Shown: positions 19,964-57,807, counted from the first letter of the stretch. The stretch: 64,000 bases of DNA from Parcubacteria group bacterium M6-OD1-1 (GCA_003056085.1 LSNK01000003.1:2744-66743); one strand, 5' to 3'. A program made the numbers and translations. Notes: generated from the sequence alone by a model not told the origin.

Positions 19964-20007
19964 TTAACGTAGCATATGGTGACGGTCGTCACCATATGCT
20001 ACGTTAA
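19964..20007. repeat. Perfect 20-bp-stem hairpin with GGTC tetraloop (ttaacgtagcatatggtgac-ggtc-gtcaccatatgctacgttaa)
   Basis: Base-by-base complementarity checked; followed by T-run; lies between nrdD start and the 3D-domain gene end. Confidence 0.85.
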
Positions 20008-20053
20008 TTTTTTAATTAGAATATTAGGGAAGAAATTATTTTGATATCAAAAA

Positions 20054-20094
20054 ACCACAAAAAACTCCTGATTTTAATCAGGAGTTTTTTGATT
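20054..20094. repeat. 41-bp perfect direct repeat copy 2 (terminator hairpin downstream of 20116..20607)
   Basis: Identical to 16805-16845. Confidence 0.9.
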
Positions 20095-20115
20095 ATATTT
20101 TTTGAATTTTATTTC

Positions 20116-20607
20116 TTACTCGGCGATTTCCACAATGGTATATTTCATCCCAAAACTTAAAGCCTCAGATCTTGATTCTATCCAAATATCTATCCTGTCC
20201 TGAAACCTTTTGTTCATTCTATCTTCTACTGTAAAAACTTTATCTCCAAAAAGTTCCGGAAATCTTACTTTTGTACCCAAGGGTAAGAAGTTTGCAGCTA
20301 TAGCGCCGTCATAAACATAATTTCCGCTTGCCATTATAAATGGCGTATCATCTGTTTGCCCTACCGTTGAAGAATATGCCGTTATTTTAGATTTTCCAAT
20401 GTTTTTCCATATGACAGGAGAACTTTCGCCTAAAAATGAATCATTCCCCGTGATAATTACTGCACTTTTTTCAATAGCCGTACTTGCAACTTTGCTCTCT
20501 TGTTGTAAATAAGCATCTGCTTCAATACTTTTATTTGCTGCGGCAAATAGATTTAATGGGCCAACTAAAATACTCGCAAGAACAACCCAACCAAATAATA
20601 TCTTCAT
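20116..20607 (-). CDS. Secreted 3D-domain protein (MltA-like/YuiC-like cell-wall-binding or lytic domain)
   Basis: Signal peptide; GQTDDTPFIMASG ... RIDIWIESRSEALSFGMKYTIVEI matches the 3D-domain C-terminal signature (IDxxxxSxxEAxxxG). Confidence 0.6.
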   Translation of the reverse strand: MKILFGWVVLASILVGPLNLFAAANKSIEADAYLQQESKVASTAIEKSAVIITGNDSFLGESSPVIWKNIGKSKITAYSSTVGQTDDTPFIMASGNYVYDGAIAANFLPLGTKVRFPELFGDKVFTVEDRMNKRFQDRIDIWIESRSEALSFGMKYTIVEIAE

Positions 20608-20798
20608 TTTTAAAATTTAATTTTTAGCTTTTTTACTGGAATTACTTTAAAATATCTGCATTTCCAATAAAAAAACTCCCCATAACAAAGGGAGATTCAT
20701 AGGACAATACTACACTATTTACTAAAATATGTCAACCCCATCACTTAGACACACAAACATCCTAATAATAGGTTTTGTCTTTTAATTTTTATACCTTA

Positions 20799-21431
20799 TT
20801 AGTCTTTCTTAGTCTTGTATTTTAAAAAAAGAATTACAGATGCCAAGAAAGAAACAACTATAAATAAAATGATCTGTTGTTTTAAGCTCACCATACCAAC
20901 ATAAGACAAAATAAATGCAAATGGCGTTATCCCCAATATTGTAGCACTCATATAAACTTTTAGATTAACTTTTGTAAAAGTACCTAAAGCATAACTTAAA
21001 ATATCAACAGGAATAAGCATTCTTAAAAAAACTATAGTCCAAAATACATTCTCCTTTGGCATCTTGCTTTCGTATTTTTCTAATTTTTCTAACGAAATAA
21101 ATCTTTTTACCACCGGCTTCCCAAACTTTACCGCTATTAAAAATGCAACAAAAGACCCCAAACTCCAACTTAGAATACTTAAAACTCCTGTTATCTGCCA
21201 ACCCCACAAATTTGCGGCAATAGGCATTAAAGGAACAGATGTTAAAGGAGCAATTACCGTTGTTATAAACGCAAGCAACACATATATTAAAGCTCCCCAA
21301 AAAAATGAAAAATTACTCATATAAGATTTGAGAGTTTCAATATTCTCTTGGACGAAATAAGAAACTGCCACAAATATTGCAGCAATTAATATTAAAGATA
21401 CCAAATTTTCTAAAATTCCTTTTTTGCTCAT
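20799..21431 (-). CDS. DedA/TVP38-family (SNARE-associated) membrane protein
   Basis: 210 aa polytopic; VPLMPIAANLWGWQITGVLSILSWSLGSFVAFLIAVKFGKPVV core. Confidence 0.65.
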   Translation of the reverse strand: MSKKGILENLVSLILIAAIFVAVSYFVQENIETLKSYMSNFSFFWGALIYVLLAFITTVIAPLTSVPLMPIAANLWGWQITGVLSILSWSLGSFVAFLIAVKFGKPVVKRFISLEKLEKYESKMPKENVFWTIVFLRMLIPVDILSYALGTFTKVNLKVYMSATILGITPFAFILSYVGMVSLKQQIILFIVVSFLASVILFLKYKTKKD

Positions 21432-21585
21432 TATTTTTAACTTTATACTTAAATTCTAACAAAATAATTTAATATTACAATAACGTTTAAAACCCGCTCT
21501 CACAATTAAGAATTAAACTAATATTCCATAACCTTATCATTAAATGAGATAAAAAAAGCGGTCAATACATTGACCGCTTAGAACG

Positions 21586-22329
21586 CTATACTTTCATAGA
21601 CTTTACTAAATATTTAACTTTTTTTTCATCTAATTCTGTAAAACTTCTGCTTATCCCGGAGGCAACCAAAAAACAATCCACAAGATCTACGTATTGACTG
21701 ATATTGTCAGCTGTTATGCCGCTTGCGACTGCGATTGGAAAATTCCCAACTGCATCTCGTATAATTTTGAGTTTTTTTGGTTCAGCTGGCATACCAGTCC
21801 CATCACCGCTTGTTGTTATGACATCCACAAACTCCGTTGCAAGCTTTGAAACTCGAGCAAGATCCAGTACTGGCTTTTGGTATTTGAAGGCTACTCCTCC
21901 AAAATAAAGACCATTCCAATCTTGTCTTTTTTCTAGCTCTTTTAGATTTTCTTTAGCATTAGATGCAGAATCCAAAAAACAGTTAATTCCTGCATTATCC
22001 ACCCATAAGCCTGATGCTCCAGACGGAACTTGTCTGATTGCATTTTTTGAATAGAGATCAAGACAATTTAAACCTATCCACCAATTAGGATAAGATTGAC
22101 GAATTATCTGATAAATACTCAATAATTTAACCGCAGACATTCTATGATTAATTAAAAAAACTCCATCCACTTCGGACTCTCTTGCTATCTTAACATTTCT
22201 TAAAGTCTGTTTTTGTGACTCTGCATGAATAACAACAATAAGACTGTTTTTGTTTTTAAACACTTCTTTATAACAAGACATATCGGTCTCCTTTTTAAAG
22301 TAAAAAGAACAATACCCACAACATAGCAA
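21586..22329 (-). CDS. BtpA/SgcQ-family TIM-barrel protein (start possibly at ATG 22281)
   Basis: LIVVIHAES...GVFLIN..., GGVAFKYQKPV, IAVASGITADNISQYVDLVDCFLVASGISR resemble the BtpA N- and C-terminal motifs. Confidence 0.4.
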   Translation of the reverse strand: MLCCGYCSFYFKKETDMSCYKEVFKNKNSLIVVIHAESQKQTLRNVKIARESEVDGVFLINHRMSAVKLLSIYQIIRQSYPNWWIGLNCLDLYSKNAIRQVPSGASGLWVDNAGINCFLDSASNAKENLKELEKRQDWNGLYFGGVAFKYQKPVLDLARVSKLATEFVDVITTSGDGTGMPAEPKKLKIIRDAVGNFPIAVASGITADNISQYVDLVDCFLVASGISRSFTELDEKKVKYLVKSMKV

Positions 22330-22411
22330 ATGAATCGCCTCCTGTAAACTAAACTAATTTATTTTAGGATTTAAAAAATCCAAACAAGAATGTTTGGGTT
22401 TTTTAAAATTT

Positions 22412-22486
22412 TGGAGCGGGTAGGGGGAATCGAACCCCCGTCTTATCCATGGCAAGGACATATAATAGCCACTATACGATACCCGC
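22412..22486 (-). tRNA. tRNA-Gly (GCC), CCA encoded
   Basis: Reverse complement GCGGGTATCGTATAGTGGCTATTATATGTCCTTGCCATGGATAAGACGGGGGTTCGATTCCCCCTACCCGCTCCA; anticodon loop TTGCCAT. Confidence 0.75.
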
Positions 22487-22570
22487 TTAGGATATTAATA
22501 GCTTATGGTTATTAGTGATTAGTATAAAAAATTACTAAAAACTATCAACTACAACCTATCTCCTAATTTG

Positions 22571-22646
22571 TGGTGCCCGGGGTGGGAATTGAACCCACGA
22601 CACCACGATTTTCAGTCGTGTGCTCTACCAACTGAGCTACCCGGAC
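22571..22646 (-). tRNA. tRNA-Phe (GAA), CCA encoded
   Basis: Reverse complement GTCCGGGTAGCTCAGTTGGTAGAGCACACGACTGAAAATCGTGGTGTCGTGGGTTCAATTCCCACCCCGGGCACCA. Confidence 0.85.
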
Positions 22647-22691
22647 AATTCTCTCATTAAAATTTTAAAACCTTTAATGAGAGGTTAAGTG

Positions 22692-22765
22692 TGCGCGCTG
22701 AGGGATTCGAACCCCCGACCCCCTCGGTGTAAACGAGATGCTCTAGCCAACTGAGCTAAGCGCGC
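22692..22765 (-). tRNA. tRNA-Val (TAC), no encoded CCA
   Basis: Reverse complement GCGCGCTTAGCTCAGTTGGCTAGAGCATCTCGTTTACACCGAGGGGGTCGGGGGTTCGAATCCCTCAGCGCGCA. Confidence 0.85.
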
Positions 22766-22924
22766 AAAAAGTATTAATCTACAATATATCACACAAAATC
22801 TCATTATTCAATACAAAATTCTGAATAACTCAACGCGTTGAGTTATTCAGAATTTTGTATATCTTTTTTGAAATACGAGAATAATAAGTATGGTGCGTTT
22901 ATTGTACCAAACTCGCACTTACTT

Positions 22925-23035
22925 TCAAAGCAACCACTGACGCACGCTCCGCGTGCGTGGTAATGCGAAACCAAGTCGTACGCTCGTAGAACGCCACAAT
23001 GCCCACCTCCGCTATCGTTACGGCAGAACCTCGCA
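22925..23035 (+). repeat. GC-rich structured element, copy 1 (ncRNA- or MITE-like); inverted copy at 32440-32640
   Basis: Shared blocks: gtggtaatgcg (22957-22967) equals the reverse complement of cgcattaccac (32557-32567). cctccgctatcgttacggcag (23007-23027) matches the reverse complement of ccgtagcgtagcggagg (32461-32477). A local hairpin acgcacg-ctccg-cgtgcgt is also present. Confidence 0.6.
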
Positions 23036-23121
23036 GAAATTTTCCCTTACAATTTTTCTTTTGTGAGAGCCTTTTTTTTAAAATCTAAAAAGGAAAGGGA
23101 AAATATCGACAAGTTCTATTC

Positions 23122-23208
23122 TGGTGCGCGGAAGAGGACTTGAACCTCCAAGGGATTGCTCCCACAAGCCCCTCAAGCTTGCGTGTTTACCGATTTCACC
23201 ACCCGCGC
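23122..23208 (-). tRNA. tRNA-Leu (GAG), class II, CCA encoded
   Basis: Reverse complement GCGCGGGTGGTGAAATCGGTAAACACGCAAGCTTGAGGGGCTTGTGGGAGCAATCCCTTGGAGGTTCAAGTCCTCTTCCGCGCACCA. Confidence 0.85.
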
Positions 23209-23252
23209 ATAACTTTTTTATTTTACGATTTTAATTTTAAAATAGCAAACTT

Positions 23253-23299
23253 TTACTTACTCAAAATAAAAATCCCGAGTAATCGGAATTTTTATTTTG
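23253..23299 (-). terminator. Long hairpin terminator after rplS (21-bp near-perfect stem tactcaaaataaaaatcccga / tcggaatttttattttgagta, GTAA loop)
   Basis: Inverted repeat with a single mismatch, immediately downstream of the rplS stop (23306). Confidence 0.6.
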
Positions 23300-23305
23300 A
23301 GTAAT

Positions 23306-23800
23306 CTATTTCTCCTCTTTTTTTTCTTCTTTAGACTCTTCTTTAACAACATCCTCTTTGGTTTTTTCAACAACTTCGTTTGTTTTTTGTTCTGCCTTAG
23401 CATCTTCTGATATTTCTTTTTTTGGAGCTTCTTTTATTTCCTCTTCATTTTTTAATTTTCTTTTAACCTCTTTCAGCCTTCCTCTTCTTCCTGTTGCATC
23501 TCTTATGTAATAAATTTTGGCTCTTCTCACTCTTCCGCTTTTCATTATTTCAAGCTTATCAATCACCGGGGAATGGATTGGAAAAATCTTCTCAACACCA
23601 ACACCGGAAGAAACTTTTCTTACTGTAAATGTTCCATTAATTCCATTTCCATGCTTTTTTGCAATAACAAGACCTTCAAAAACCTGAACTCTTTCTTTTG
23701 TTCCTTCTTTAATTTTTTGGTGAACTTTTACGGTATCACCTACTTTTAAGTCAACTTTGTTTTTCAGCTGACTTTCTGTAAATTTTCTTACTTTATCCAT
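23306..23800 (-). CDS. rplS: 50S ribosomal protein L19 with Lys/Glu-rich C-terminal extension
   Basis: KVGDTVKVHQKIKEGTKERVQVFEGLVIAKKHGNGINGTFTVRKV...RRAKIYYIRD; about 50-aa KE-rich tail. Confidence 0.9.
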   Translation of the reverse strand: MDKVRKFTESQLKNKVDLKVGDTVKVHQKIKEGTKERVQVFEGLVIAKKHGNGINGTFTVRKVSSGVGVEKIFPIHSPVIDKLEIMKSGRVRRAKIYYIRDATGRRGRLKEVKRKLKNEEEIKEAPKKEISEDAKAEQKTNEVVEKTKEDVVKEESKEEKKEEK

Positions 23801-23906
23801 ATATTTAAAATAGTATTTAAAACAATTAGATTTTGACGGTAAACCTGTTTTTCTAAATAAAATTCCGATGAAAATTATTTGAGAATAGGTCTAACATAGC
23901 AGATTT

Positions 23907-24851
23907 CTACTTATTTTTCAACCCCTCCAAGCACTTTTTTAAATCAACGGGTAAATCAGCAGAAAATTTCATCTTTTCTCCATTTGGCAAAAAAAATGAA
24001 ATCTCAGCTGCATGTAGAAATTGACGCTCAAATGGCAATTTCTGAAATGTTTTTTTTGATGTATATTTCTTATCCCCCACCACAGGATGTCCAATGTATG
24101 CAAAATGAACCCTTATTTGATGCATTCTGCCGGTTTTTGGCATAGCTTCAACCAAAGTAAAGTCGTCAATGTATTTTTTTACTTTAAATTCTGTTTTGGC
24201 TTCTTTTGTCTTTGTGATTTTACCATGCCTTCTTCCCTTCCCTAAAGCAACTTGTTTTGCGCCGGATCTTGCAATGGGTGCCGTTATCTCACCTTTTTTA
24301 TCTTTTATATTTCCAAATACTAAAGCTATGTATTTCTTTTTTAATTTTCTTTCTTTAAATTGATCTTTTAACCAAAAAAATATTTTATTTGTTTTAGCTA
24401 CAACCATAACACCTGATGTTTCTTTATCCAACCTGTGAACTATCCCCGGTCTAAGCTCATCTTCCCCCACATTTTTTATCTTTGGCCACTTTGCCAAAAG
24501 CCCATTTACCAATGTTTCTTTTTTATGAGATTTACTCGGATGAACAACCAAGCCTGCCGGTTTATCTATCACTGCAAAATCTTTATTCTCAAAGATTATT
24601 TTAAATTTTACATCTTTGTCCGGACTTACACTTATCTTTTCAGGGAAACTCAAGCTTACTTTTATATCATCTTTCTCTTTTAGTTTATAGTTTTTTGACA
24701 TTAAAAAACCATTAACCTTAACACCGCCATCTTCTATTAATTTTTGAAGATAACTTCTCGAATATTCTTGAAGTTTTGATGAAAGAAATTTATCAAGACG
24801 AGCTCCCACCTCATTCTCTGATATCTTAAAATCCAAGCTTTTTGTAATCAT
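23907..24851 (-). CDS. rluD: RluA-family 23S rRNA pseudouridine synthase (RluD-like, N-terminal S4 domain)
   Basis: HRLDKETSGVMVVAKT catalytic Asp motif; S4-like N-terminus; 314 aa. Confidence 0.8.
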   Translation of the reverse strand: MITKSLDFKISENEVGARLDKFLSSKLQEYSRSYLQKLIEDGGVKVNGFLMSKNYKLKEKDDIKVSLSFPEKISVSPDKDVKFKIIFENKDFAVIDKPAGLVVHPSKSHKKETLVNGLLAKWPKIKNVGEDELRPGIVHRLDKETSGVMVVAKTNKIFFWLKDQFKERKLKKKYIALVFGNIKDKKGEITAPIARSGAKQVALGKGRRHGKITKTKEAKTEFKVKKYIDDFTLVEAMPKTGRMHQIRVHFAYIGHPVVGDKKYTSKKTFQKLPFERQFLHAAEISFFLPNGEKMKFSADLPVDLKKCLEGLKNK

Positions 24852-25818
24852 ATTTCATAGCCTTTCTTACTTCCTTAAGAGTTTTTTCCGCCTCTTCGGA
24901 AGCCTTCTCTGTTCCTTCTTTTAAAATTTGAGATATATATTTTTCATCTTTTTCAAATTCTTTTCTTTTTTCTCTTATTGGATCCAAAAATTTATTTATT
25001 ACATCAGAAAGCCCTTCTTTAAACTCTTTGTACCCCAAACCTTCGTATTTTTTTTCTATATCTTTTATATCTTTTCCGGAAAAAAGATGATACATCATAA
25101 GCAAGTTTGCTAAAGCTAACCTCTTGTCTTTGTCGTAAACTATATCTTTTTTTGAATCTGTTACCGCTTTTTTTATTTTTTTAATAACTTCATCTTTTGA
25201 ATCCGATAAAAACACTGCATTATTTCTGGATTTTGACATTTTATTTTCTGCATCAAGACCCATAAGTCTTGGAGATTTTGAAATTAGAGCTTTTGGCATT
25301 TTAAATACTTCGCCAAATGTATTATTAAAAGTTTTTACCACATCTCTTGTTTGCTCTATGTGCGGTAACTGATCTTCTCCGACTGGAATTAAGTCAGCAT
25401 TAAAAGCTAATATATCAGCGGCTTGTGAGACAGGCATATTAAGCATCCCTAAAGACATCTTCCCCCCGGCAGTTGCCTGAACCTCTTCTTTTATAGTAGG
25501 ATTTTGCTGGGCGCGAGAAACTGTTACCAACATAGAAATATAAACAAAAAGCTCTGATAGCTGAGGAACTTTTGATTGTATAAATATATTTGTCTTTTTT
25601 GGATCTAAGCCGACCGATAAATAATCCAAGACTAATTCCCTAATATTTTCTTCAACCTCATCTGTTTCCATTCTGTCTGTAAGCACCTGAAAATCAGCTA
25701 TGATGTTAAACATTTCATAATCTTCATTTTGCAGTTTAATTCTGTTTTGGAGCGAACCGACATAGTGCCCCAAGTGTAAAGGACCAGTTGGTCTATCGCC
25801 TGTTAAAATTCTTTTCAT
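24826..25818 (-). CDS. trpS: Tryptophanyl-tRNA synthetase
   Basis: TGDRPTGPLHLGHYVG (HIGH), KMSKS, 330 aa. Confidence 0.88.
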   Translation of the reverse strand: MKRILTGDRPTGPLHLGHYVGSLQNRIKLQNEDYEMFNIIADFQVLTDRMETDEVEENIRELVLDYLSVGLDPKKTNIFIQSKVPQLSELFVYISMLVTVSRAQQNPTIKEEVQATAGGKMSLGMLNMPVSQAADILAFNADLIPVGEDQLPHIEQTRDVVKTFNNTFGEVFKMPKALISKSPRLMGLDAENKMSKSRNNAVFLSDSKDEVIKKIKKAVTDSKKDIVYDKDKRLALANLLMMYHLFSGKDIKDIEKKYEGLGYKEFKEGLSDVINKFLDPIREKRKEFEKDEKYISQILKEGTEKASEEAEKTLKEVRKAMKYDYKKLGF

Positions 25819-25828
25819 ATTTTAAATA

Positions 25829-26644
25829 TTAACTTTTATTATACCACTTCCAGACATACTTCAGATAACTATATATATGAACTCTTGTCAACTCACTTTT
25901 AAAAACATCAAAAAAACCAAGACCGTTATAAGAACCTCTCATATGATGATGGATAAACTCAGCCATCGGATAATAAACAACCCTAAAACCATTTTTTTTA
26001 AATCTCCTGCAAAGATCAACATCTTCAAAATACATAAAAAATCTATCATCAAAATAAGTGCCAACTTTATTTAATCTGCTTCTTTTCATTAAAAATGCTG
26101 AACCCATAAGCCAATCAACTTCCAATGGCTCTTTTACATTTTTTTTATCTTCGTATTTAAACCTATTTATTGCCTTTTTTCCGATGTTGGTTTTCCCAAA
26201 AAGAGTTCTTCTCGCCAAGACAGTCATAAATGTATAATTTCTAAAATAGTTTTGCTGGAAAGATGCGTCTTTATTTGTAAGTCTTGGGCTTAATACTCCT
26301 ACATCTTCATTTTTTTTAAGATAATCCATCATTTCAGAAATATTACTGCTTCTTTTTTTAAAAAGAATATCCGCATTTATAATAAAGATGTAATCTCCAT
26401 TCGTTTCTTTTATTACAGGATTTACTATTTTTGAAAAACCTAAATTATCTTTATTTTTGATGAACCTCACTTCCGGATATTCTTTCTCCATTTCAGAAAT
26501 CTTTTTAAAATCGGTATTGCTGTCTGCAACAGAAACATCATAATCAATGTCTTCTATATTTTTTTTTATAGAATCCAAACACATCCTCAATATTTCATGA
26601 GTTTTGTAATGGGTTACTATTATGTTTAAGATTTTCTGATTCAT
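25829..26644 (-). CDS. Family-2 glycosyltransferase
   Basis: N-terminal GT2 Rossmann core (IIVTHYKTHEILRMCLDSI...VADSNTD), DxD-like region. Confidence 0.7.
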   Translation of the reverse strand: MNQKILNIIVTHYKTHEILRMCLDSIKKNIEDIDYDVSVADSNTDFKKISEMEKEYPEVRFIKNKDNLGFSKIVNPVIKETNGDYIFIINADILFKKRSSNISEMMDYLKKNEDVGVLSPRLTNKDASFQQNYFRNYTFMTVLARRTLFGKTNIGKKAINRFKYEDKKNVKEPLEVDWLMGSAFLMKRSRLNKVGTYFDDRFFMYFEDVDLCRRFKKNGFRVVYYPMAEFIHHHMRGSYNGLGFFDVFKSELTRVHIYSYLKYVWKWYNKS

Positions 26645-26650
26645 TTTAAA

Positions 26651-27376
26651 CTAATTTTTATTTAAGAAGATGTCTCTTGCTATTTTATTTGCTTCAAACA
26701 AAGATTCAAATGTCCCGGCATCTGTCCAAGCTCCTTTCAATAAAGAAAAATTCATCAACTTTTCTTTAATATAAAAATTATTTACATCTGTTATTTCAAG
26801 CTCCCCCCTTTCTGAAAGAGAAAGTTTTTTTACAAAATTAAACACATTATTATCATACATATAAAGTCCGGCAACCGCTAAATTTGTTTTTGGATTTTTC
26901 GGTTTTTCTTCCACATTTACAATATATCCCTCATTAATCTCCGCAACACCAAATCTATTTGCATCCTCAACTTCTTTTAAGAAAACTTTGGCTCCATTTT
27001 TTTGTTTTTCAAATTCTAAAACTGCCTCTGTTATATCATCTTCAAAAATATTATCTCCCAAAATAACCGTGATTTTATCATTTCCGGCAAAATCTTCACA
27101 TAAACTTAAAGCATCTGCCACACCAAGAGCTTCTTTTTGAACCCCATAAGACAATTTTACATTAAATTCTTCCCCAGAACCAAGTAAATCCAAAAAATGC
27201 CCTGTATGATTGTCACTGGAAATTATCATAATATCATCTATGCCGGCTTTTGCTAAAGTATTTAAAGGATAATAAATCATCGGATACTTATATATCGGCA
27301 AAAGATGTTTGTTTGTAACTTTTGTTAAGGGGTGAAGCCTGCTTCCCGTACCACCCGCTAAAATAATTCCTTTCAT
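26651..27376 (-). CDS. rmlA: Sugar-phosphate nucleotidyltransferase (RmlA-like glucose-1-phosphate thymidylyltransferase, short form)
   Basis: MKGIILAGGTGSRLHPLT signature; 241 aa. Confidence 0.75.
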   Translation of the reverse strand: MKGIILAGGTGSRLHPLTKVTNKHLLPIYKYPMIYYPLNTLAKAGIDDIMIISSDNHTGHFLDLLGSGEEFNVKLSYGVQKEALGVADALSLCEDFAGNDKITVILGDNIFEDDITEAVLEFEKQKNGAKVFLKEVEDANRFGVAEINEGYIVNVEEKPKNPKTNLAVAGLYMYDNNVFNFVKKLSLSERGELEITDVNNFYIKEKLMNFSLLKGAWTDAGTFESLFEANKIARDIFLNKN

Positions 27377-27413
27377 ATTTTTTAAAAACCTACTCTTAGA
27401 AAATAGTTTATGT

Positions 27414-28244: not shown

Positions 28245-28248
28245 TTTT

Positions 28249-29205: not shown

Positions 29206-29209
29206 AATG

Positions 29210-30136: not shown

Positions 30137-30145
30137 TTTAAAATT

Positions 30146-32640: not shown

Positions 32641-32664
32641 GGTTCGGATTTGGTAAAATAAAAG

Positions 32665-32785: not shown

Positions 32786-32788
32786 TTT

Positions 32789-34225: not shown

Positions 34226-34231
34226 TGCCCG

Positions 34232-34304
34232 TCCACCCTCCTGGACTTGAACCAGGGACCGCCGAGATATAAGCTCGGTGCTCTACCGACTGAGCTAAGG
34301 GTGG
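34232..34304 (-). tRNA. tRNA with anticodon UAU (tRNA-Ile2-like, decoding AUA); C1:G72, discriminator A, no CCA
   Basis: Reverse complement CCACCCTTAGCTCAGTCGGTAGAGCACCGAGCTTATATCTCGGCGGTCCCTGGTTCAAGTCCAGGAGGGTGGA; anticodon stem CCGAG/CTCGG, loop CTTATAT. Confidence 0.65.
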
Positions 34305-46782: not shown

Positions 46783-46884
46783 AGTTTGGCTTATTAGAAA
46801 TTAGTTTTATTTCAGCCGGAGACTAACCTACCTCTGACGAAAGCTCATTAGACACCTAAGAAGCTAAAAACTATCAAACTGTAT

Positions 46885-49356: not shown

Positions 49357-49357
49357 T

Positions 49358-49615
49358 TTATTTTATTTTTATTTTCTGCGGTTCAAAAAAATCTTTGATT
49401 CCGGCTGATAAACTTTCGTAAATAGTTGGTAATTTGATTTTGTAGTTGTCTTCACTTGTTTTTACTTCTTTTTTTTCACCTGATTCATTAAAATTATTTT
49501 TTATAGAATTTAGCCAAACTATAAAAACTAAAAGAAAGGCTATCGTCATTAAAATTAAAAAAATCTTCACTCTGATATGTTTTGGTTTTTTTTGAATGCT
49601 TTCTACAAAATTCAT
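49358..49615 (-). CDS. Small membrane protein, hypothetical
   Basis: 85 aa, single TM ([20 protein letters not shown]); 1-bp gap to gyrA. Confidence 0.4.
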
Positions 49616-49619
49616 TATA

Positions 49620-50279: not shown

Positions 50280-50370
50280 AATAAATAAAGCCTAAAAAAT
50301 AGACTTTTAAATTTAAATTAAAAAATAAACTACTTCCAATGATACCTTATTTTAGAAAAAAAATAAAGTT

Positions 50371-51126
50371 TTAGATCTTAAAAAGCTCTCTTGCGTTCTT
50401 TGTGGTTTGTGTCGCCACATCTTCAAATGTCATGCCTTTTATTTCCGCGAGTTTTTCCGCTGTAAATTTTACATACGACGGCTCATTTCTTTTGCCTCTG
50501 TTTGGTACAGGAGCAACAAAAGGAGCGTCTGTTTCAACAAGCACTCTATCTATGGGCACATATTTTACAACTTCATCGTAATCTCTTGTAAAAGTTATAA
50601 CTCCTGCAAAAGATATATGAAATCCCAAATCAATATATTTTTTTGCCTGTTCCTTACTCCCGCTAAAAAAATGAATTACTCCGGCAGTTCCTTCCGCATT
50701 TGCTTTTAATGTTTTTATAGCATCATCATGCGCATCTCTGCAATGCACCACTAAAACTTTATTGAGCTTTTTTGCAATTTTGATATGCTTCATAAAAAAA
50801 TCTATCTGTTTTACTTTTTTATCCTCATCTTTGGTTCTGAAATAATCAAGTCCTGTTTCTCCTATTCCAACAACTTTCTCATCTTGAGAAATTTTCTCCA
50901 AAAGCTTAAAATCAAAATCTAAAGAAACATCATTAGGATGCAAACCGCAAACAGCATAAACTCCTTCTGTGTATTTATGCGCAATTTCTACGGCTTTTTG
51001 TGATGTTGGCATATCAACCCCAACATTTATCATCCAAATATCTTTTAAAAAAGCGCGCTTTATAACCTCATCATAATCGTCTTTAAAATCATCTAAATTT
51101 GTATGAGTGTGAGTATCAATTAACAT
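50371..51126 (-). CDS. tatD: TatD-family metal-dependent DNase/hydrolase
   Basis: MLIDTHTHTN, GLHPND, GETGLDYF, VVHCRDA, ETDAPF; 251 aa. Confidence 0.85.
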   Translation of the reverse strand: MLIDTHTHTNLDDFKDDYDEVIKRAFLKDIWMINVGVDMPTSQKAVEIAHKYTEGVYAVCGLHPNDVSLDFDFKLLEKISQDEKVVGIGETGLDYFRTKDEDKKVKQIDFFMKHIKIAKKLNKVLVVHCRDAHDDAIKTLKANAEGTAGVIHFFSGSKEQAKKYIDLGFHISFAGVITFTRDYDEVVKYVPIDRVLVETDAPFVAPVPNRGKRNEPSYVKFTAEKLAEIKGMTFEDVATQTTKNARELFKI

Positions 51127-51177
51127 GAGAAAGAATTAAGAATAAATATTCAATTTAATTTTACAAACATTAAAAAA

Positions 51178-52668
51178 TTAGTCTAATCTGGGAAAAAGCG
51201 GCTCCGGTTTTTTAATGCTAAGAGGTTTTTCTGACCAATCTTTTTTGTCTTTTGAAATCCCCAAAGCGGAAAAAATTCTTTCCGAAGTATCCGGTAAAAA
51301 TGGCAAAAGAAGATATGCTGTGTAAGCAATACTTAAAATAAGATCTTTTGTAGTTTTTTTGAACTCTTCTTTGTCTTTTTTCGGCAACTCCCAAAGCTTA
51401 GACTCTTCTACCATTTTATCAGAAACATCAATTAATTTAAATATATTTTCCAAAGCAACATTTAAGTGAAAACTTTCAATGTTTTTTTCATATTCTGATA
51501 TCGTATTTCTTATACTTTCAGAAATATCATTTTCAGAAATTTTAATTTCTCCTAAAATATCTTTATTTTTTTCCGCTATCGCAGAAACTCTTAAAACTAA
51601 ATTTCCCAATTTATTTGATAAGTCGCCATATCTCTCTTTAAATCTCTCATCAGAAAAATCACCGTCTTGATAAGAGGGTATCTCCCTTAAAAGATAGTAT
51701 CTGACTGCTTCTTTTCCATATTTTTCTATTAAATCAAATGGACTCACAACATTACCCAAAGACTTGGACATTTTGACGCCTTCATGAGTTATAAAACCAT
51801 GAACATATATATTTTTTGGAAGAGGAAGCTCAAGCGACAAAAGCATAGCGGGCCAAATCATCGCATGAAATCTTAAAATATCCTTCCCCACCAAATGCAC
51901 ATCTGCCGGCCAAAACTTTTCATACAATTTACCGGTTGGACCACCGAGCCCGGAAATATAATTTGTTAAAGCATCTGCCCAAACATATATTTTTTGAGTA
52001 TCATCTGAAGGAACGTTTATCCCCCACCCAACACTTTCTTTTGGTCGAGAAAAAGAGACATCAGAAACTTTTTCACTTTCAAAAAGATTAAGCATTTCTT
52101 TTTTTCTATGCTCCGGAACTATCTTTATTTCGTCTTTTTGTATGAGCTCTTTAACTCTTTCTGCATATTTTGAAAATTTAAAAAAATAATTTTCTTCTGA
52201 CACCTGCTCGGGAGCTTTTTTATGAATAATACACTCTCCATCTTTGAGATCCTTTTCATTTATAAAAGCTTCGCAACCCACACAATAAAAAGCTTCGTAA
52301 GTATTTTTATAAATATCCTCCTTCTCCACAAATTTTTTCCAAAAATCAAAAACAATAGGATAATGCATTTTTTCATCTGAAGTTCTTATGAAAGAATCGT
52401 TGGAAATGCCAAGCTCTTTCGCTAAGCTTTTAAATTTTTCTGAAATCTCGTCTACAAATTCTTTTGGAGTTTTATTTTCCAATTCAGCCTTTTGTTGTAT
52501 TTTTTTTCCATGTTCATCCATTCCTGTTAAGAAAAAAACGTCGTCACCTTTTTGACGATGATATCTTGCAAGGACATCGGCCTGCAAAAGTTCAAGAGCA
52601 TAACCAATATGCGGTTCTGCATTTGCATAAGCAATTGATGTTGTAATATAAAATTTATTTTTTGACAT
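51178..52668 (-). CDS. metG: Methionyl-tRNA synthetase (short form without C-terminal tRNA-binding domain)
   Basis: ITTSIAYANAEPHIGYALE, Zn knuckle CVGCEAF...C, KMSKSLGN; 496 aa. Confidence 0.9.
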   Translation of the reverse strand: MSKNKFYITTSIAYANAEPHIGYALELLQADVLARYHRQKGDDVFFLTGMDEHGKKIQQKAELENKTPKEFVDEISEKFKSLAKELGISNDSFIRTSDEKMHYPIVFDFWKKFVEKEDIYKNTYEAFYCVGCEAFINEKDLKDGECIIHKKAPEQVSEENYFFKFSKYAERVKELIQKDEIKIVPEHRKKEMLNLFESEKVSDVSFSRPKESVGWGINVPSDDTQKIYVWADALTNYISGLGGPTGKLYEKFWPADVHLVGKDILRFHAMIWPAMLLSLELPLPKNIYVHGFITHEGVKMSKSLGNVVSPFDLIEKYGKEAVRYYLLREIPSYQDGDFSDERFKERYGDLSNKLGNLVLRVSAIAEKNKDILGEIKISENDISESIRNTISEYEKNIESFHLNVALENIFKLIDVSDKMVEESKLWELPKKDKEEFKKTTKDLILSIAYTAYLLLPFLPDTSERIFSALGISKDKKDWSEKPLSIKKPEPLFPRLD

Positions 52669-52720
52669 AGCTTTATTTTACACGCAAAAAGAACTTAAGT
52701 AAATTAAAAATAAATGTTTT

Positions 52721-52770
52721 GAAAATCCTGCGATTTATTGAACGACCGTTCAATAAATCGCAGGATTTTC
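52721..52770. repeat. Perfect 23-bp-stem hairpin with GACC/GGTC tetraloop (ttttgaaaatcctgcgatttattgaac-gacc-gttcaataaatcgcaggattttc)
   Basis: Complementarity checked pairwise; sits between metG start and the stop of 52771..53391. Confidence 0.85.
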
Positions 52771-53391
52771 TTATTTAGTTAAAAGCTTCAGGCTTCCTGT
52801 TTTTGTTATTTCAAATATTTCAACAAAATTAATAATTTTCAAATCTTTTAAGTCACTTAAAAAGTCTCTCGGTACAACTACTTTTCCCATCCAAACACTT
52901 TTTTGAACTATTTTAAAATCCATTTTTACAAGAGCATGCCTTAACCATGCTCTCTTATGTCTATCTCTTTCAGGGATATCAAATATTATAATCGTAACTC
53001 TACTACTCTTTTTATTTTTATAATCAATAATAGGAAAATCCCCCATTTTTTTCTGTAAATTTTTTATTAAACTTATTTTTTTAATTCCCTTCTTAGTAAT
53101 TTTAAAAGTAAAACTATGATTACTTTTACGTTTTTCTAATAATCCGCACTTTTCTAATCTGTTTACCATAGAATGAAATCTATCATTTATTTTTTTCTTG
53201 TTATTTTTTGATAATTTCTGATATTCTATATTGAATCTTTTTCTAAATTGTCCATTCTCCGCTTTACGCTCAATCTCATTTAAAGAAGCACCGTAACTAG
53301 AAGTTATAAAAACATCTAAAAGATCCGCTGTATCCAGTGCAGCATCTTTTAATATTTCTAAGAATTTTAAAGTTTTATCTCCTCTTTTCAT
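52771..53391 (-). CDS. Two-domain protein with an N-terminal winged-HTH-like domain and a C-terminal Cas2/VapD-like (PaaX-C-like) domain
   Basis: N-terminal LNEIERKAENGQFRK...LEKCGLLEKRKSNHSFTFKITKKG (wHTH-like). C-terminal RVTIIIFDIPERDRHKRAWLRHALVKMDFKIVQKSVWMGKV fits the Cas2-like pattern (beta1 with Asp, basic helix, G.RVQ.SVW). No CRISPR array or other cas genes lie nearby. Confidence 0.45.
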   Translation of the reverse strand: MKRGDKTLKFLEILKDAALDTADLLDVFITSSYGASLNEIERKAENGQFRKRFNIEYQKLSKNNKKKINDRFHSMVNRLEKCGLLEKRKSNHSFTFKITKKGIKKISLIKNLQKKMGDFPIIDYKNKKSSRVTIIIFDIPERDRHKRAWLRHALVKMDFKIVQKSVWMGKVVVPRDFLSDLKDLKIINFVEIFEITKTGSLKLLTK

Positions 53392-53443
53392 AATTTATGT
53401 TAGGCGACTTTTCTGACGGTCGTTCGATAAATCGTAAATTTAA

Positions 53444-54118
53444 TTATACTTTATTTATAACTACAACAAACTCACCAAGAGTTTTATCATCTTCTAACTT
53501 TTCTAAAACCTCTTTTGCTGTACCCCTGTATGTCGTTTCAAATATTTTAGTAAGCTCACGGCAGAGAACTATTTCTCTTTCTCCTGAAACTTCAGAAAGC
53601 TCCAGAAGCGCCTTCTTTATCCTGTGCTTTGACTCATAAAAAACTATTGTGTCTTTTTCTTTTGAAATATTTCTGAAAAATGTCTGTCTTCCTTTTTTAT
53701 GCGGAGGAAATCCTAAAAACTTAAACTTATCTGCACAAAACCCGGAAATACTCAGAGCGGCCGTTACAGCACTTGGTCCGGGAATAGAAACTATATTTAT
53801 TTCTCCGCCAAAATTTTCAACGATTTTTAAAATTAGAAAACTTCCGGGATCAGATATTGTCGGCGTTCCAGCATCAGACACCAAGGCTAATTCTTTCCCT
53901 TCTTTTAGTAAATCTAAAATTTGATCTATCTTACCAATTTTGCTGTGCTTGTGATAACTTAAAAGAGGTTTTTTTATATCATACGCCATTAAAAGTTTTG
54001 TGGTAACTCTCGTATCTTCACATAAAATAACATCAACGTTACTTAGGGTGTCCAACGCTCTTTGTGTTATGTCTTTTAAATTGCCTATTGGTGTAGCCAC
54101 CACATAAAAAACTGCCAT
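53444..54118 (-). CDS. rsmI: 16S rRNA (cytidine1402-2'-O)-methyltransferase
   Basis: VVATPIGNLKDITQRALDTLSNVDVILCEDTRVTTKLL tetrapyrrole-methylase fold; 224 aa. Confidence 0.85.
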   Translation of the reverse strand: MAVFYVVATPIGNLKDITQRALDTLSNVDVILCEDTRVTTKLLMAYDIKKPLLSYHKHSKIGKIDQILDLLKEGKELALVSDAGTPTISDPGSFLILKIVENFGGEINIVSIPGPSAVTAALSISGFCADKFKFLGFPPHKKGRQTFFRNISKEKDTIVFYESKHRIKKALLELSEVSGEREIVLCRELTKIFETTYRGTAKEVLEKLEDDKTLGEFVVVINKV

Positions 54119-54193
54119 AAAAATTAACGCCTCTTTCTAAAAACATCTTTGAGAGATAAAAATATTTATTTTTCTGATTTAAAGAAATTACAA

Positions 54194-55234
54194 TTAACCT
54201 ATCTCTTCTATCTCTTTTTCTTTAGCTTTTGCATAATCATCCAAAAGCTCCCCCACTATTGTTGCGATTGGAACTGAAATTAACATTCCGATTACTCCGC
54301 CAAGCTCCCAACCTATAAGCAAAGAAATGATAATAACTATTGGGTTTAGCCCTGTCATTTTTTTCATTAAAAATGGGACTAAAATATTATTTTCAAATTG
54401 TTGAACTATTAAATAAAATATAAGAGCAAGTAATGCTAAAAATGGATCTACCATCAAAGCAACTAAAACACCTAAAAATGCGGAAAATATCGGGCCAACA
54501 ACAGGAATAATCTCAAAAATACCAGCAACAATACCCAATAAAAGGGCGTACGGGACTCCTAATATAGAAAGTCCTAAAAAGACCACAAAGCCTATAATTA
54601 TGGCTAAAATAAGCTGCCCCTGAAGCCAAAGCCCGAGCTTTCTTTCCACTCTTTTCCATAAATTTAAAATATAATCTTCGTTTTGTCTCGGAGTTATCAT
54701 TCTTATAAAATGTTCGACTCCTTTCTCTTGAGCCGCAAGATAAAAAGATATAACTATAACTATAAAAAATGTAGCAAAACCTCCAAACACACCGGCAATA
54801 GCGCCAAATGCACTTGAAGCAAACTGCTTTATTTTTTCTCCGGAATTAAGCAAGAAATCCTGTCCCGCCTTTGTGTATTCCGGTGATATTTCTATTATCG
54901 TTTTTGAAAATTTAGTTGAAAGAGTTTCATAATAACTTGGCAAAACAGATGCGAGTTGTCTTATTTCGTCTACTATCGTAGGAACAACCAAATAAAGAAG
55001 CAGAATTAAAAATAAAATGGCAACAAGGTAAACAGAAAGAACTCCTAATATTCTTGGTATCTTCTTCTTTTCAAGATAATTTGCCCATGGATATATAGCA
55101 GAGGCTATCACCAAAGAAAGAAATAAAATAATTAAAATATTTTTTATAAGGAAAAGGAAAAGGAAAAAAAGAATTATTAAAATTACTTTAAATATTGTTC
55201 TTGTTGAAATATCTAATATTTGTCTTGGTATCAT
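54194..55234 (-). CDS. AI-2E family transporter (UPF0118/PerM-like permease)
   Basis: 346 aa, 7-8 TM, characteristic C-terminal ISVPIATIVGELLDDY region. Confidence 0.65.
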   Translation of the reverse strand: MIPRQILDISTRTIFKVILIILFFLFLFLIKNILIILFLSLVIASAIYPWANYLEKKKIPRILGVLSVYLVAILFLILLLYLVVPTIVDEIRQLASVLPSYYETLSTKFSKTIIEISPEYTKAGQDFLLNSGEKIKQFASSAFGAIAGVFGGFATFFIVIVISFYLAAQEKGVEHFIRMITPRQNEDYILNLWKRVERKLGLWLQGQLILAIIIGFVVFLGLSILGVPYALLLGIVAGIFEIIPVVGPIFSAFLGVLVALMVDPFLALLALIFYLIVQQFENNILVPFLMKKMTGLNPIVIIISLLIGWELGGVIGMLISVPIATIVGELLDDYAKAKEKEIEEIG

Positions 55235-55285
55235 TTAATTTAATCTGTTTTTACAAATTGTTTTTTAAGTTAATGTATTAATAGT

Positions 55286-56014
55286 TTATAGTTTTTTGAC
55301 TACTATGTAAAGGTTGGCTCTACCGTTTTTTCCTCCAAAATAACCGCTTTCCTCTATTTTAAACCCTGATTTTTTTACCAATCTTTTAAATTCTCTCTTA
55401 GTAAAAGCATGATAATATCTTTCTGTAATCACTTTTCCTTCTTGATTTTTCCATGGTACAAAAATATCTTTAAAATCTGCCTTATGTTGACCGAGCAGCT
55501 TTTTAATGGCATACTTAAAAATCAGCTTTCTGTATCTTCCCTGCCAAAGATTCCAATTTGTTAAAATCACTCTTCCATTTGGTTTAAGAAGTCTGTGAAA
55601 TTCTTTAAGAAGATTAATTCTCATTTTAGCGGTCGGGATATGATGAAAAGCTGCTATTGAATATATGCTATCAAAAGATTCATCAGAAAAAGAAAGTTTT
55701 AAAGACTCAACAGTTAAAAATTCAATTTTTTTAATTTTGCTTGAAAAAATATCTTGAAATTTTTGTTTTGCAAGATTAATTAACTCCTCCGATGCATCCA
55801 CACCTGTGTAATTAATCTCTTTTTCTAAAAATAAACCGATAAGTCTGCCATTGCCACAGCCAAAATCCAAAACAGAATCCCCGTCTTTTGCATATTTGCC
55901 AAACTGACTTAATTCTCTCCATAAATAAGTCCTTGTCCTGTCAAAATCTTTTGAGATAAGATTATAAGCCTGTTTATTTTTTTCAATTAATTGTTTAGCG
56001 TATTTTTCTTTCAT
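55286..56014 (-). CDS. Class I SAM-dependent methyltransferase
   Basis: VLDFGCGNGRL motif I; 242 aa. Confidence 0.7.
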   Translation of the reverse strand: MKEKYAKQLIEKNKQAYNLISKDFDRTRTYLWRELSQFGKYAKDGDSVLDFGCGNGRLIGLFLEKEINYTGVDASEELINLAKQKFQDIFSSKIKKIEFLTVESLKLSFSDESFDSIYSIAAFHHIPTAKMRINLLKEFHRLLKPNGRVILTNWNLWQGRYRKLIFKYAIKKLLGQHKADFKDIFVPWKNQEGKVITERYYHAFTKREFKRLVKKSGFKIEESGYFGGKNGRANLYIVVKKL

Positions 56015-56179
56015 AACTTACTTTTTAAAAAGATTATTTTAAATAAAATTAGAACTTTTGGATTTGAATGTAGTTTGAGGTAAAAACGAAAAACCGATAG
56101 GAGTCGTACAAAAAGTACGACGAGTGAGATTTTTGATTTTTAACGAAAAAATGCGCCAAATACAAAAATTCTGAATACC

Positions 56180-57757
56180 ATGAAAACAATACTGGAAAAT
56201 TTAATATTGGAAGCCTCATCCCAGAAAAAACTGAGCGAACTTAGCTTTAGCAAGCTAAAAAGAAAACATATGCAGAACCTCGGCATTCACGGGCTTCCTT
56301 CTAATATGAAACTTTTACCAGTTTACCACAGATTAGTAAAGTCAAAAAAAATAAAAGCTAATAAAATTTTAGAATACATTATAAAAAAAAGGAAGATAAG
56401 AACCCTTTCCGGTATTGCTTCTATTACAATTTTAACAAAAAATTGGGGATGTCCTGGAAAATGCAGATTTTGTCCAACAGAAAAAGGTATGCCAAAAAGC
56501 TATCTTTCCAATGAACCTGCTGTTATGCGCGCTATTTTAAATGAGTTTGACCCCTACAAGCAAGTTCAAATGAGATTAGACTCCCTCAAAAATCAAGGAC
56601 ACTCAATAAATAAAATTGAAGTTATAGTTATAGGCGGAACTTGGTCTGCCATTCCGCATGATTATCAAGAGTGGTATATAAAAAGAATATATGAAGCGTT
56701 AAATAAAAAAGAATCAAAAACTCTTGAGATTGCAATGAAAAAAAATGAGACTTCAGAACAAAAATTAGTCGGCTTAACTTTAGAAACGAGACCGGACTGG
56801 ATAACAGAAGAAGAACTAAAAATAATGCGAAAATATGGATGTACGAGAGTAGAACTTGGAGTTCAAAGTATTTATGATGATGTTTTGGACGCATCACAAA
56901 GAGGACACAAAATAGATGCAACAATAAAAGCAACAAGAATGCTTAAAGACTCAGGATTTAAAATCAACTATCATATGATGCCAAATCTCCCGAAGTCAAC
57001 CGTCAAAAAAGATATAAAAATGCTCAAAGATATATTTTTAGATCAAAATTTTCAACCCGATCTTCTGAAAATTTATCCTTGTATGGTTCTTAAAAATACA
57101 AAGCTTTATCAAGATTTTAAAGATGGAAAATTCAAGCCTTACACAGACAAACAATTAATAAAAATAATGAAAGAAGCAAAAGAAAATGTACCTCAATATT
57201 GCAGAATCGTAAGAATCATACGTGATATTCCGGCAACGAGCATAGCCGGAGGAAGCCATACCTCAAATTTGAGAGAATTTGTTCATAAAGAAATGAAAGG
57301 AGAAGGAAAAAAATGCAAATGCATAAGATGCCGAGAAATAATGGGCGATGAATTTGATTTAAAAAATGTAAAAATGATAAGAAGAGATTATGATGCATCC
57401 AATGGAAAAGAAATATTTTTATCTTTTGAAGATACAAAAAATGATAAAATTATTTCTCTTTTAAGATTACGCATCCCTTCTCAGAAAAAAAATGAGATAT
57501 TTCCTGTTTTGTCTAATGCTTCAATTATAAGAGAAATTCATACATACGGAAATGTTGTGCCTGTTTCAAAAACAGATAAAAAAGCTCAACAGCATAAAGG
57601 ATTAGGTAAAAAATTATTAAAAGAAGCGGAAAAAATCACCAAAAAAGAATTTAATTTAAACAAAATAACTGTTATCGCAGCTGTTGGAGTACGAGATTAC
57701 TATAAAAAATTTGGATATAAAACAAAAGACACTTACATGTACAAAACATTAAAATAA
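56180..57757 (+). CDS. elp3: Elp3-family radical-SAM/GNAT protein (bacterial homologue of the tRNA wobble-uridine carboxymethyl-transferase Elongator subunit 3)
   Basis: GCPGKCRFCPTEKGMPKSYLSNEPAVMRA (Elp3 radical-SAM cysteine motif); C-terminal GNAT QQHKGLGKKLLKEAEKITKKEFNLNKITVIAAVGVRDYYKKFGY; 525 aa. Confidence 0.75.
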   Translation: MKTILENLILEASSQKKLSELSFSKLKRKHMQNLGIHGLPSNMKLLPVYHRLVKSKKIKANKILEYIIKKRKIRTLSGIASITILTKNWGCPGKCRFCPTEKGMPKSYLSNEPAVMRAILNEFDPYKQVQMRLDSLKNQGHSINKIEVIVIGGTWSAIPHDYQEWYIKRIYEALNKKESKTLEIAMKKNETSEQKLVGLTLETRPDWITEEELKIMRKYGCTRVELGVQSIYDDVLDASQRGHKIDATIKATRMLKDSGFKINYHMMPNLPKSTVKKDIKMLKDIFLDQNFQPDLLKIYPCMVLKNTKLYQDFKDGKFKPYTDKQLIKIMKEAKENVPQYCRIVRIIRDIPATSIAGGSHTSNLREFVHKEMKGEGKKCKCIRCREIMGDEFDLKNVKMIRRDYDASNGKEIFLSFEDTKNDKIISLLRLRIPSQKKNEIFPVLSNASIIREIHTYGNVVPVSKTDKKAQQHKGLGKKLLKEAEKITKKEFNLNKITVIAAVGVRDYYKKFGYKTKDTYMYKTLK

Positions 57758-57807
57758 AATGACAACTTTGGGGACGGTCGTCCCCAAAGTTGTCATTTTA
57801 TTTTAAT
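57748..57807. repeat. Perfect 28-bp-stem hairpin with GGTC tetraloop overlapping the elp3 stop (attaaaataaaatgacaactttggggac-ggtc-gtccccaaagttgtcattttattttaat)
   Basis: Pairwise check of 28 consecutive complementary positions; bidirectional terminator position between convergent elp3 and murD. Confidence 0.85.

Follow-up and report, generated by a model that had tools for sequence, protein, structure and literature searches.

Palindromes with a common centre bracket a winged-helix, Cas2-like gene in Patescibacteria and are candidate operators of its product

Why would several intergenic palindromes of one bacterial chromosome keep the same few bases at their centres while their arms differ? 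The question is posed by a 64-kb stretch of the chromosome of Parcubacteria group bacterium M6-OD1-1 (LSNK01000003.1:2744-66743), Patescibacteria DNA of Paceibacteria-like type with ~32% G+C and housekeeping genes, which we call the window and whose coordinates we use throughout. An initial annotation had drawn attention to three long, perfect inverted repeats that close on a common GGTC loop, and to a fourth, degenerate copy on the far side of a gene. We find that this gene, which encodes a 206-amino-acid (206-aa) protein with a winged helix and a Cas2-like domain, lies between two copies of the same palindrome, as do its homologues in every genomic context that we examined, and the palindromes are probably operators of the protein.

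Palindromes with a common centre

The elements in question are the following.

Site 1: 19964-20007, perfect palindrome with 21-bp arms and the 2-nt centre GT
Site 2: 52721-52770, perfect palindrome with 24-bp arms and the centre AC (the reverse complement of GT)
Gene of the 206-aa protein: 52771-53391, minus strand, N-terminal winged helix and C-terminal Cas2-like domain (PaaX_M)
Site 3: 53403-53436, imperfect dyad with arm A CGTCAGAAAAGTCGCC and arm B CGTTCGATAAATCGTA around CG-GT-CG
Site 4: 57748-57807, perfect palindrome with 29-bp arms and the centre GT, both arms of type A (CGTCCCCAAAGT)
Fifth long palindrome: 22811-22860, perfect, 25-bp arms, AACG followed directly by CGTT at the centre with no 2-nt spacer, between tRNA genes

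The coordinates of the three perfect repeats all hold, and the stems of 20, 23 and 28 bp around a GGTC tetraloop that were initially described are the same structures with the innermost G:C pair left uncounted. The palindromes recur in assemblies made independently for this organism, NCBI GCA_003056185.1 and Logan SRR14803397 among them, so they are not an artefact of one assembly; the agreement of these assemblies, the precise positions of the elements at gene ends and their genome-specific arms together exclude an assembly or adapter artefact. Contigs of other assemblies stop exactly at the centres of sites 2 and 4 (the start of L064 and the ends of L066 and L156), and the palindromes explain why short-read assemblies break at these points.

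The core ACGGTCGT occurs four times in the window where 0.16 occurrences are expected; none of 100 shuffles reaches four, and every occurrence is the centre of a palindrome. What sites 1 and 4 have in common is the central 10 nt, GACGGTCGTC, and nothing more. There are 11 perfect hairpins with stems of at least 10 bp in the window, and the four longest are sites 1, 2 and 4 and the palindrome at 22811-22860. Folded as RNA, sites 1, 2 and 4 reach -33 to -41 kcal/mol, with z-scores of -9.5 to -14, and site 3 folds poorly (-6.8 kcal/mol, z -1.2).

The initial annotation had stressed that such stems are extraordinarily long beside those of ordinary terminators, a contrast that fails for this phylum. 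Perfect palindromes with 14-25-bp arms are frequent in the intergenic DNA of the other Patescibacteria loci that we fetched; they typically consist of an A-tract, a G+C-rich stem and a T-tract, and their centres vary. Since long perfect palindromic terminators are common in Patescibacteria, stem length is not special here. In 693 kb of these other loci the hexamers CGGTCG/CGACCG occur 202 times and not once within a strong palindrome, a comparison that, together with the counts in the window and the shuffles, excludes a chance origin of the shared centre. By these counts it is the shared centre, rather than the length of the stems, that is specific to the elements described here.

Two observations from other genomes touch on this distinction. 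Three Cloacimonadota loci (L055 3919-3998, L056 10065-10110 and L058 6921-6966) have a conserved perfect palindrome with 22-38-bp arms built from 11-nt repeats (ATAACCTTAGT), centred on TTACG-GT-CGTAA in two species and on ACGGCTGT in the third, so that the central 8-mer is the same as here. Its neighbours are genes for a PPIase and an aspartokinase (the L058 palindrome lies upstream of the latter), with no Cas2-like gene nearby; it is either a separate, unexplained coincidence or a distant analogue, and we treat it as a coincidence. Another Patescibacteria locus, L159, has two long palindromes (2648-2687 and 12907-12944) with common outer arms (ATAAGTCCGA) and differing centres, the opposite of the pattern described here, which hints at other palindrome families in the phylum.

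A gene bracketed by its own palindrome

An association with particular flanking genes, among them the Cas2-like gene, was one of the checks that the initial annotation had proposed, and this link proves to be the key. We examined nine homologue contexts: the window, L146, L147/148, L149, L150/151, L152, L153, L154 and L155. L146 and L147/148 are from sister species with the same synteny, L149 holds a paralogue elsewhere in the L146 genome, and L150, L152, L153, L154 and L155 contain more distant homologues; the more distant lineages offer six distinct gene neighbourhoods. The nearest representative genome has 73% identity in MetRS, and genome and JGI metagenome collections yielded no relative above that value. 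In all nine contexts the same palindrome stands just upstream and just downstream of the gene. The arms of these flanking palindromes are common within a genome and different between genomes, and their centres are CGGTCG/CGACCG, CGATCG or CGGCCG, with TGATCA in the Colwellbacteria example.

In the window the pair consists of site 3, between the stop codon of RsmI and the start of the 206-aa gene, and site 2, which begins at the base after that gene's stop codon and ends 53 bp upstream of the start of MetRS. Site 3 is an inverted sequence copy of site 2; the initial description of a degenerate copy with the same core was right about the core and understated the relation. The corresponding inverted pairs of L147 and L146 are 35-36 nt long; that of L147 is an exact reverse complement, and that of L146 has one mismatch. 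The contigs of the L147/148 species break (end of L148, start of L069) in ~100-bp tandem repeats just past the downstream copy. We rejected the idea that the gene, lying between inverted repeats, is an invertible segment, as its orientation is the same in all assemblies and species and there is no recombinase nearby.

The upstream copy in the relatives abuts or contains a -10 box (AAGTAGTATAAT, AAGTCGTATAAT, AAGTAATATAAT). In L146, L147, L154 and L155 the box, TATAAT or nearly so, lies 7-8 nt ahead of the ATG at the proximal arm's outer edge, a spacing that implies a leaderless mRNA in most relatives; the TATAAT of L149 is likewise at the edge of the arm, and its leader is longer. The centre of the dyad lies 28-31 nt before the ATG in five of the nine contexts, and in L146 a TTGAAC-17-TATAAT element spans the core. 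Two candidate boxes can be named for the window.

53397-53402, minus strand: candidate weak -10 box TAACAT, 5 nt before the ATG, at the position of the relatives' TATAAT and read by analogy with them
53443-53448, minus strand: perfect TATAAT, just upstream of the site 3 palindrome

A consensus promoter scan of the window did not call the TAACAT box. The downstream copies of L146 (10640-10680) and L147 (10645-10690) also look like promoters, on the opposite strand and pointing back into the regulator gene; the elements, read from sequence only, are TTGAAC-17-TATAAA in L146 and TTGTCC-17-TAAGCT in L147, and antisense transcription from these copies is possible.

When the arms are aligned by their distance from the dyad, a consensus CGT-Y-M-A-A-W-A-A-G-T-n-G-T-A emerges. 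A scoring matrix built only from the arms of other genomes places three of the sites at the top of the 64-kb window, site 3 with 23.4 bits, site 2 with 19.2 and site 4 with 16.5, where the shuffle maximum is 15.3; in 2.04 Mb of unrelated loci about three independent matches score at least 16.5. The centre contributes much of this score. An arms-only test, which uses positions 4-16 and gives percentiles against the background of the window, ranks the elements as follows.

Site 3: top 0.3-0.5%
L146_II: 1.4%
Site 2: 1.6%
Site 4: 2.6%
L147_a: 2.6%
Palindrome at 22811-22860: 5.5%, arms weakly resembling arm B
Site 1: 53%, no resemblance to the consensus

The stems are thus not all unrelated, as had been thought: those of sites 2, 3 and 4 fit an arm consensus derived from other genomes, and the earlier view stands for site 1. 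The palindrome at 22811-22860, missed in the initial annotation, lies between tRNA-Val and a G+C-rich block and has ACG/CGT flanks like those of the core; it is possibly a relative of the family, with its membership uncertain because its arms reach only the 5.5th percentile of resemblance to the consensus.

The element that flanks the gene has two unlike arms in the window, L146 and L147: arm A is CGTCmmAAAAGT, and arm B, CGTTCAATAAGT, contains a -35-like TTGAAC. Of the six flanking copies in these three genomes, five conserve arm A, and L146 and L147 still have an A/B element at the downstream position. Site 2 is the exception: there the exact complement of arm B and its flank stands in place of the presumed ancestral arm A, as far as the stop codon. 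Among elements that are solo or perfected, site 4 and L146_II are of A/A type, and site 2, L149 and L147_b are of B/B type. Turnover of arms is also seen in the gap between MurD and RadSAM, where site 4 lies: L147 has two palindromes there, centred on GACG-GT-CGTC and CGCG-AC-CGCG, and L146 has one, with a core one substitution away. From the window to L146 to L147 the arms in this gap are wholly different, and their complementarity is always perfect. By the arms-only measure the solo palindromes of the two relatives still rank in the top 1.4-2.6% for likeness to the consensus.

Candidate operators and competing explanations

What kind of protein is encoded between the two copies? Pfam searches return PF20803 (PaaX_M, 2.7e-10) and, marginally, PF09827 (Cas2, 4.9e-5), and some homologues give weak PadR matches. 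In the AlphaFold2 model (pLDDT 82) a winged helix at the N-terminus precedes a ferredoxin-like domain at the C-terminus; the model's best full-length match in Foldseek is E. coli PaaX (8a39), the phenylacetate repressor, followed by Cas2 proteins and by PadR/LmrR-type regulators. The family comprises 752 clusters (50% identity) at E<1e-30 and has a nearly invariant C-terminal motif, FDIPE...R.WLR...QKSVW.GK, in which the Asp at the conserved, catalytic position of Cas2 (D138) is invariant. Viral contigs in IMG/VR contain no homologue.

Whether the palindromes act as DNA or as RNA can be judged from several of their properties. The centre does not keep one orientation with respect to transcription, and in L150 and L152 the two copies differ in their centres. 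The upstream copies of the window, L146 and L147 are conserved in sequence with their inner arms unpaired and barely fold, and in L146 and L147 they lie before the predicted transcription start, outside the gene's own transcript. None of the 183 stem pairs is a mismatch or a G.U, a pair that the ordinary rplS terminator (23257-23304) does use on its sense strand. Because of the inconsistent orientation, the unfolded or untranscribed upstream copies, the lack of G.U pairs and the different centres of other lineages, we favour duplex DNA: the pattern is a better fit to a dyad-symmetric, double-stranded operator than to a loop signal. From the conservation of the loop the initial annotation had argued for loop-specific recognition. 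Its premise of specific recognition of a centre that is not there by chance survives, but recognition of a hairpin loop is at odds with the inconsistent orientation, with poor upstream hairpins that overlap the promoter, and with the centres CGATCG, CGGCCG and TGATCA found elsewhere.

The reading that we consider probable, by a modest degree, is that the ACGGTCGT-centred palindromes are duplex operators of the 52771-53391 protein, some of which have been perfected, probably by template switching, and double as terminators. The protein, probably as a dimer, would bind a dyad of ~34 bp. Its winged helices would read the outer arm AAGT-n-GTA, 9-16 bp from the dyad, and the invariant CG-nn-CG centre would lie under the dimerised Cas2-like domains, at the dimer axis. 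Since the upstream copy overlaps the gene's own promoter, we propose autorepression, in which binding at site 3 would repress the 206-aa gene. For the downstream copy, site 2, two roles are conceivable: a loop that lets it cooperate with site 3, or a block to transcription running on into MetRS. Site 4 and, with less certainty, site 1 would be further, solo targets or roadblocks, which as stable hairpins flanked by T-rich sequence would terminate transcription as well. Template switching during replication, by copying one arm of an imperfect palindrome onto the other, would turn an A/B operator into an A/A or a B/B element, and for site 2 a single arm-to-arm switch would be a better explanation than many coordinated substitutions. 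A common generative mechanism, which the initial annotation had offered as an option, is therefore plausible, with the amendment that it would act on a pre-existing protein site.

Several points weigh against operators. The window's own promoter is weak or ambiguous, and its exact identity uncertain. The arms-only support for site 4 is modest (top 2.6%), and this site and its orthologues lie between convergent genes, with no obvious promoter to control. Site 1 matches nothing past its central 10 nt, and the regions upstream of nrdD in two relatives, L158 and L159, hold no core palindrome and no counterpart of it. The centre is the most conserved part and the arms are the least, the reverse of most winged-helix operators. 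Arm complementarity over 21-29 bp far exceeds any plausible footprint, so that the account has to invoke, in addition, either a mutational process or a role of the structure itself, as an RNA hairpin or a cruciform. The invariant D138 would be compatible with a nuclease role, and the status of operator depends on binding that we infer.

The competing explanation that fares best, and that comes closest to the initial idea, is that the protein recognises the palindrome when folded, either as an RNA hairpin or as an extruded DNA hairpin or cruciform, with CGGUCG/CGACCG at the tip, and that its Cas2-like domain binds or cleaves this structure, which would nick DNA or control the 3' ends of mRNAs. 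Nucleases are known among proteins of the Cas2 and VapD folds, which gives weight to the invariant Asp of FDIPE; the centre is the most conserved element, as a tip signal would have it; perfect 21-29-bp stems with covarying arms argue for pairing; and the downstream copy always falls in the gene's 3' untranslated region. We nevertheless find this explanation unlikely, given the inconsistent orientation of the centre, which in L150 and L152 differs between the two copies of one gene, the poor hairpins of the upstream copies (window, L146, L147) and their position before the predicted transcription start (L146, L147), and the fact that the closest structure, PaaX, is a repressor that acts on double-stranded DNA.

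Could the palindromes simply be ordinary bidirectional intrinsic terminators, with a tip inherited from duplicated terminators or favoured by folding, and no protein involved? Site 4, between the convergent RadSAM/GNAT and MurD genes, looks the part: its tails are T-rich on either strand, and its shape is that of a bidirectional terminator, a stable G+C-containing hairpin before a U-tract in both directions. Site 2 directly follows a stop codon, the hairpins are very stable, and long perfect palindromes with A-tract and T-tract flanks are common in Patescibacteria loci. Yet the core is absent from the palindromes in the 693 kb of other Patescibacteria loci and tracks the Cas2-like gene instead. 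The T-tail of site 2 is on the antisense strand only, even though the site adjoins a stop codon, and that of site 1 is only on the strand that has no upstream gene; moreover, site 1 follows a separate terminator. The conserved upstream copies that flank the gene barely fold, the stems contain no G.U in 183 pairs, and the core is kept at an orthologous position despite complete turnover of the stem. Taken together, these observations make a purely terminator-based account improbable.

A bolder proposal, which we also regard as doubtful, is that of a self-contained Cas2-fold module: the gene would be bracketed by its own CG-nn-CG sites, the protein would recognise and perhaps nick an extruded hairpin or cruciform, template-switch repair would make and extend the perfect palindromes, and solo copies would accumulate at the boundaries of variable cassettes (DNA_binding_1, nrdDG). 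Were it true, it would amount to a REP/RAYT-like or attC-like system without a known recombinase, and to a new role for the Cas2 fold outside CRISPR.

Least probable, and indeed very unlikely in our view, is that the palindromes are cassette-boundary markers of a REP/RAYT- or attC-like kind, in which the Cas2-like gene would form the autonomous unit and the solo palindromes would be its derivatives or recombination scars. The gene and both palindromes do occur together in differing genomic contexts, and site 1 lies 47 bp inside a 3.2-kb nrdDG segment between 41-bp direct repeats. The much more compact locus L001 is without the Cas2-like gene, with RsmI and MetRS spaced 13 bp apart, an exact absence, its MurD/RadSAM gap has neither the small DNA_binding_1 gene nor a palindrome, and it has no core and no long hairpin; gene loss in so compact a genome, however, explains these absences equally well. 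Against mobility stand the lack of any transposase, integrase or Cas1 domain in the ~39 window open reading frames (ORFs) scanned or matched to annotated loci, solo palindromes that are not copies of each other, the failure to see target-site duplications, the absence of the family from IMG/VR, and a sample of three loci.

Two narrower candidates were rejected: a restriction-modification or methylation motif, as CGGTCG is not avoided (8 occurrences against ~4.6 estimated from base composition, the palindromes accounting for the excess), and an NrdR box in the arms of site 1 upstream of nrdD, where ~10 of 16 positions agree by eye and the single arms are not palindromic.

Genomic setting and known systems

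Site 1 is placed between the terminator (20058-20091) of the ORF at 20116-20607 and the nrdD promoter with its B12 riboswitch. This AdoCbl-II riboswitch (19759-19837, minus strand) is directly upstream of nrdD, which encodes the anaerobic ribonucleotide reductase; its position implies that B12 controls a reductase that is itself independent of B12. An identical direct repeat of 41 bp at 16806-16846 and 20054-20094 consists of the last 4 nt (ACCA) of a tRNA-Leu, a 34-bp palindromic terminator and 3 nt, and the two repeats bracket the 3.2-kb segment with nrdG, nrdD, the riboswitch and site 1; it resembles either a terminator that was duplicated or an att-like scar left by insertion of an nrdDG cassette. 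An Rfam scan of the window found only tRNAs and the AdoCbl-II riboswitch, apart from spurious microRNA-hairpin matches at 22811-22860. Next to that palindrome, a G+C-rich block of ~170 nt (22880-23050, minus strand) sits between tRNA-Val and tRNA-Leu in this A+T-rich genome; Rfam has no match for it, its fold z-score is -1.1, and it may be an unrecognised small RNA or a decayed gene.

Two other features of the window are worth recording. A giant minus-strand ORF of more than 2278 aa (3-6836), with 51-nt/17-aa repeats at 1854-2175, runs off the edge of the window and explains why the left end appears poor in ORFs and richer in G+C. A tRNA-Ile at 34231-34304 (minus strand) has the anticodon UAU, which is uncommon in bacteria.

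In the searchable literature we found no description of this family, of a gene bracketed by an operator pair or of long palindromes centred on operators; full-text searching with the core 8-mer gave primers only, and searches on Patescibacteria terminators, palindromes and winged-helix Cas2-like proteins turned up nothing relevant. Very few transcription factors can be recognised in Patescibacteria, whose gene regulation is almost uncharted. Against this background, a large family (752 clusters) that is widely, and probably wrongly, labelled as CRISPR Cas2 can now be tied to a concrete candidate DNA site, in an unusual gene architecture in which the gene is bracketed by two copies of its own palindrome. 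The locus may also show how, in nature, operators become long perfect palindromes with a second function as terminators, and its interest would be higher if the Cas2-like domain acted on the hairpin form.

How do these elements compare with known systems? Site 4 resembles bidirectional terminators in its A-tract, G+C-rich stem-loop and T-tract between convergent genes. The family as a whole departs from them in the 8-nt tip that it has in common with the regulator's putative operators, in the lack of a sense-strand U-tract at sites 1 and 2, and in stems that are perfectly Watson-Crick paired over 21-29 bp. REP/RAYT elements (REPINs) likewise comprise a gene between two palindromic copies, with further intergenic palindromes at the 3' ends of genes. 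Unlike RAYTs, however, the 206-aa protein is not an HUH/Y1 (IS200/IS605-like) transposase and has only the PaaX_M and Cas2 Pfam matches; the solo palindromes are few, with differing arms and no GTAG head, and the only copies of one another within the 64 kb are sites 2 and 3. Integron attC sites have their conserved motif (R''/R', GTTRRRY) at the base of an imperfect hairpin and not, as here, at the tip; the stems here are perfect, and no integrase was found in the ~39 ORFs. The arm A to arm B' conversion proposed for site 2 would match the correction of quasipalindromes by template switching, in which an imperfect palindrome becomes perfect in one event. That process is said to follow a model of Ripley and reportedly has been studied in E. 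coli by Lovett and others; here its action is deduced from comparative sequence alone.

Many homologues of the protein are named 'CRISPR-associated endonuclease Cas2' in databases, and they do have in common with Cas2 the fold and the N-terminal strand motif of the C-terminal domain. The score of the 206-aa protein against the NCBIfam cas2 model TIGR01573, 21.0 bits, is nonetheless under the cutoff of 24.5, a winged helix is fused to the domain, and the window has no cas1 among the ORFs scanned and no CRISPR repeat array in tandem-repeat scans. The database name is probably a misannotation.

The closest parallels are repressors. PadR-family regulators are small winged-helix proteins with palindromic operators at their own promoters, and the 206-aa protein has structural matches to LmrR, Rv3488 and BCE3449; the PadR family differs in having a C-terminal helical dimerisation domain where this protein has a Cas2 fold, and its operators are shorter (ATGT-N8-ACAT in B. 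subtilis). PaaX has the same order of domains, an N-terminal winged helix and then a Cas2-like middle domain (PF20803; Foldseek 8a39), and acts through a long dyad-symmetric operator that overlaps promoters. Its Cas2-like domain is not known as a nuclease. The dyad described here overlaps the promoter in L146, L147, L149, L154 and L155, with a weak or ambiguous -10 box in the window. The differences lie in the shorter protein, 206 aa against 305 for chain 8a39, which has no PaaX_C match and ends ~8 residues past the Cas2-like domain, thus lacking the C-terminal domain of PaaX; in an unrelated operator sequence; in the lack of paa genes among the window ORFs scanned; and in an operator pair that brackets its own gene and is most conserved at the centre of the dyad. 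Judged from its sequence and model, the 206-aa protein appears to be neither a CRISPR Cas2 nor part of a REP/RAYT system, and to be built like a truncated PaaX/PadR-type repressor with a palindromic operator.

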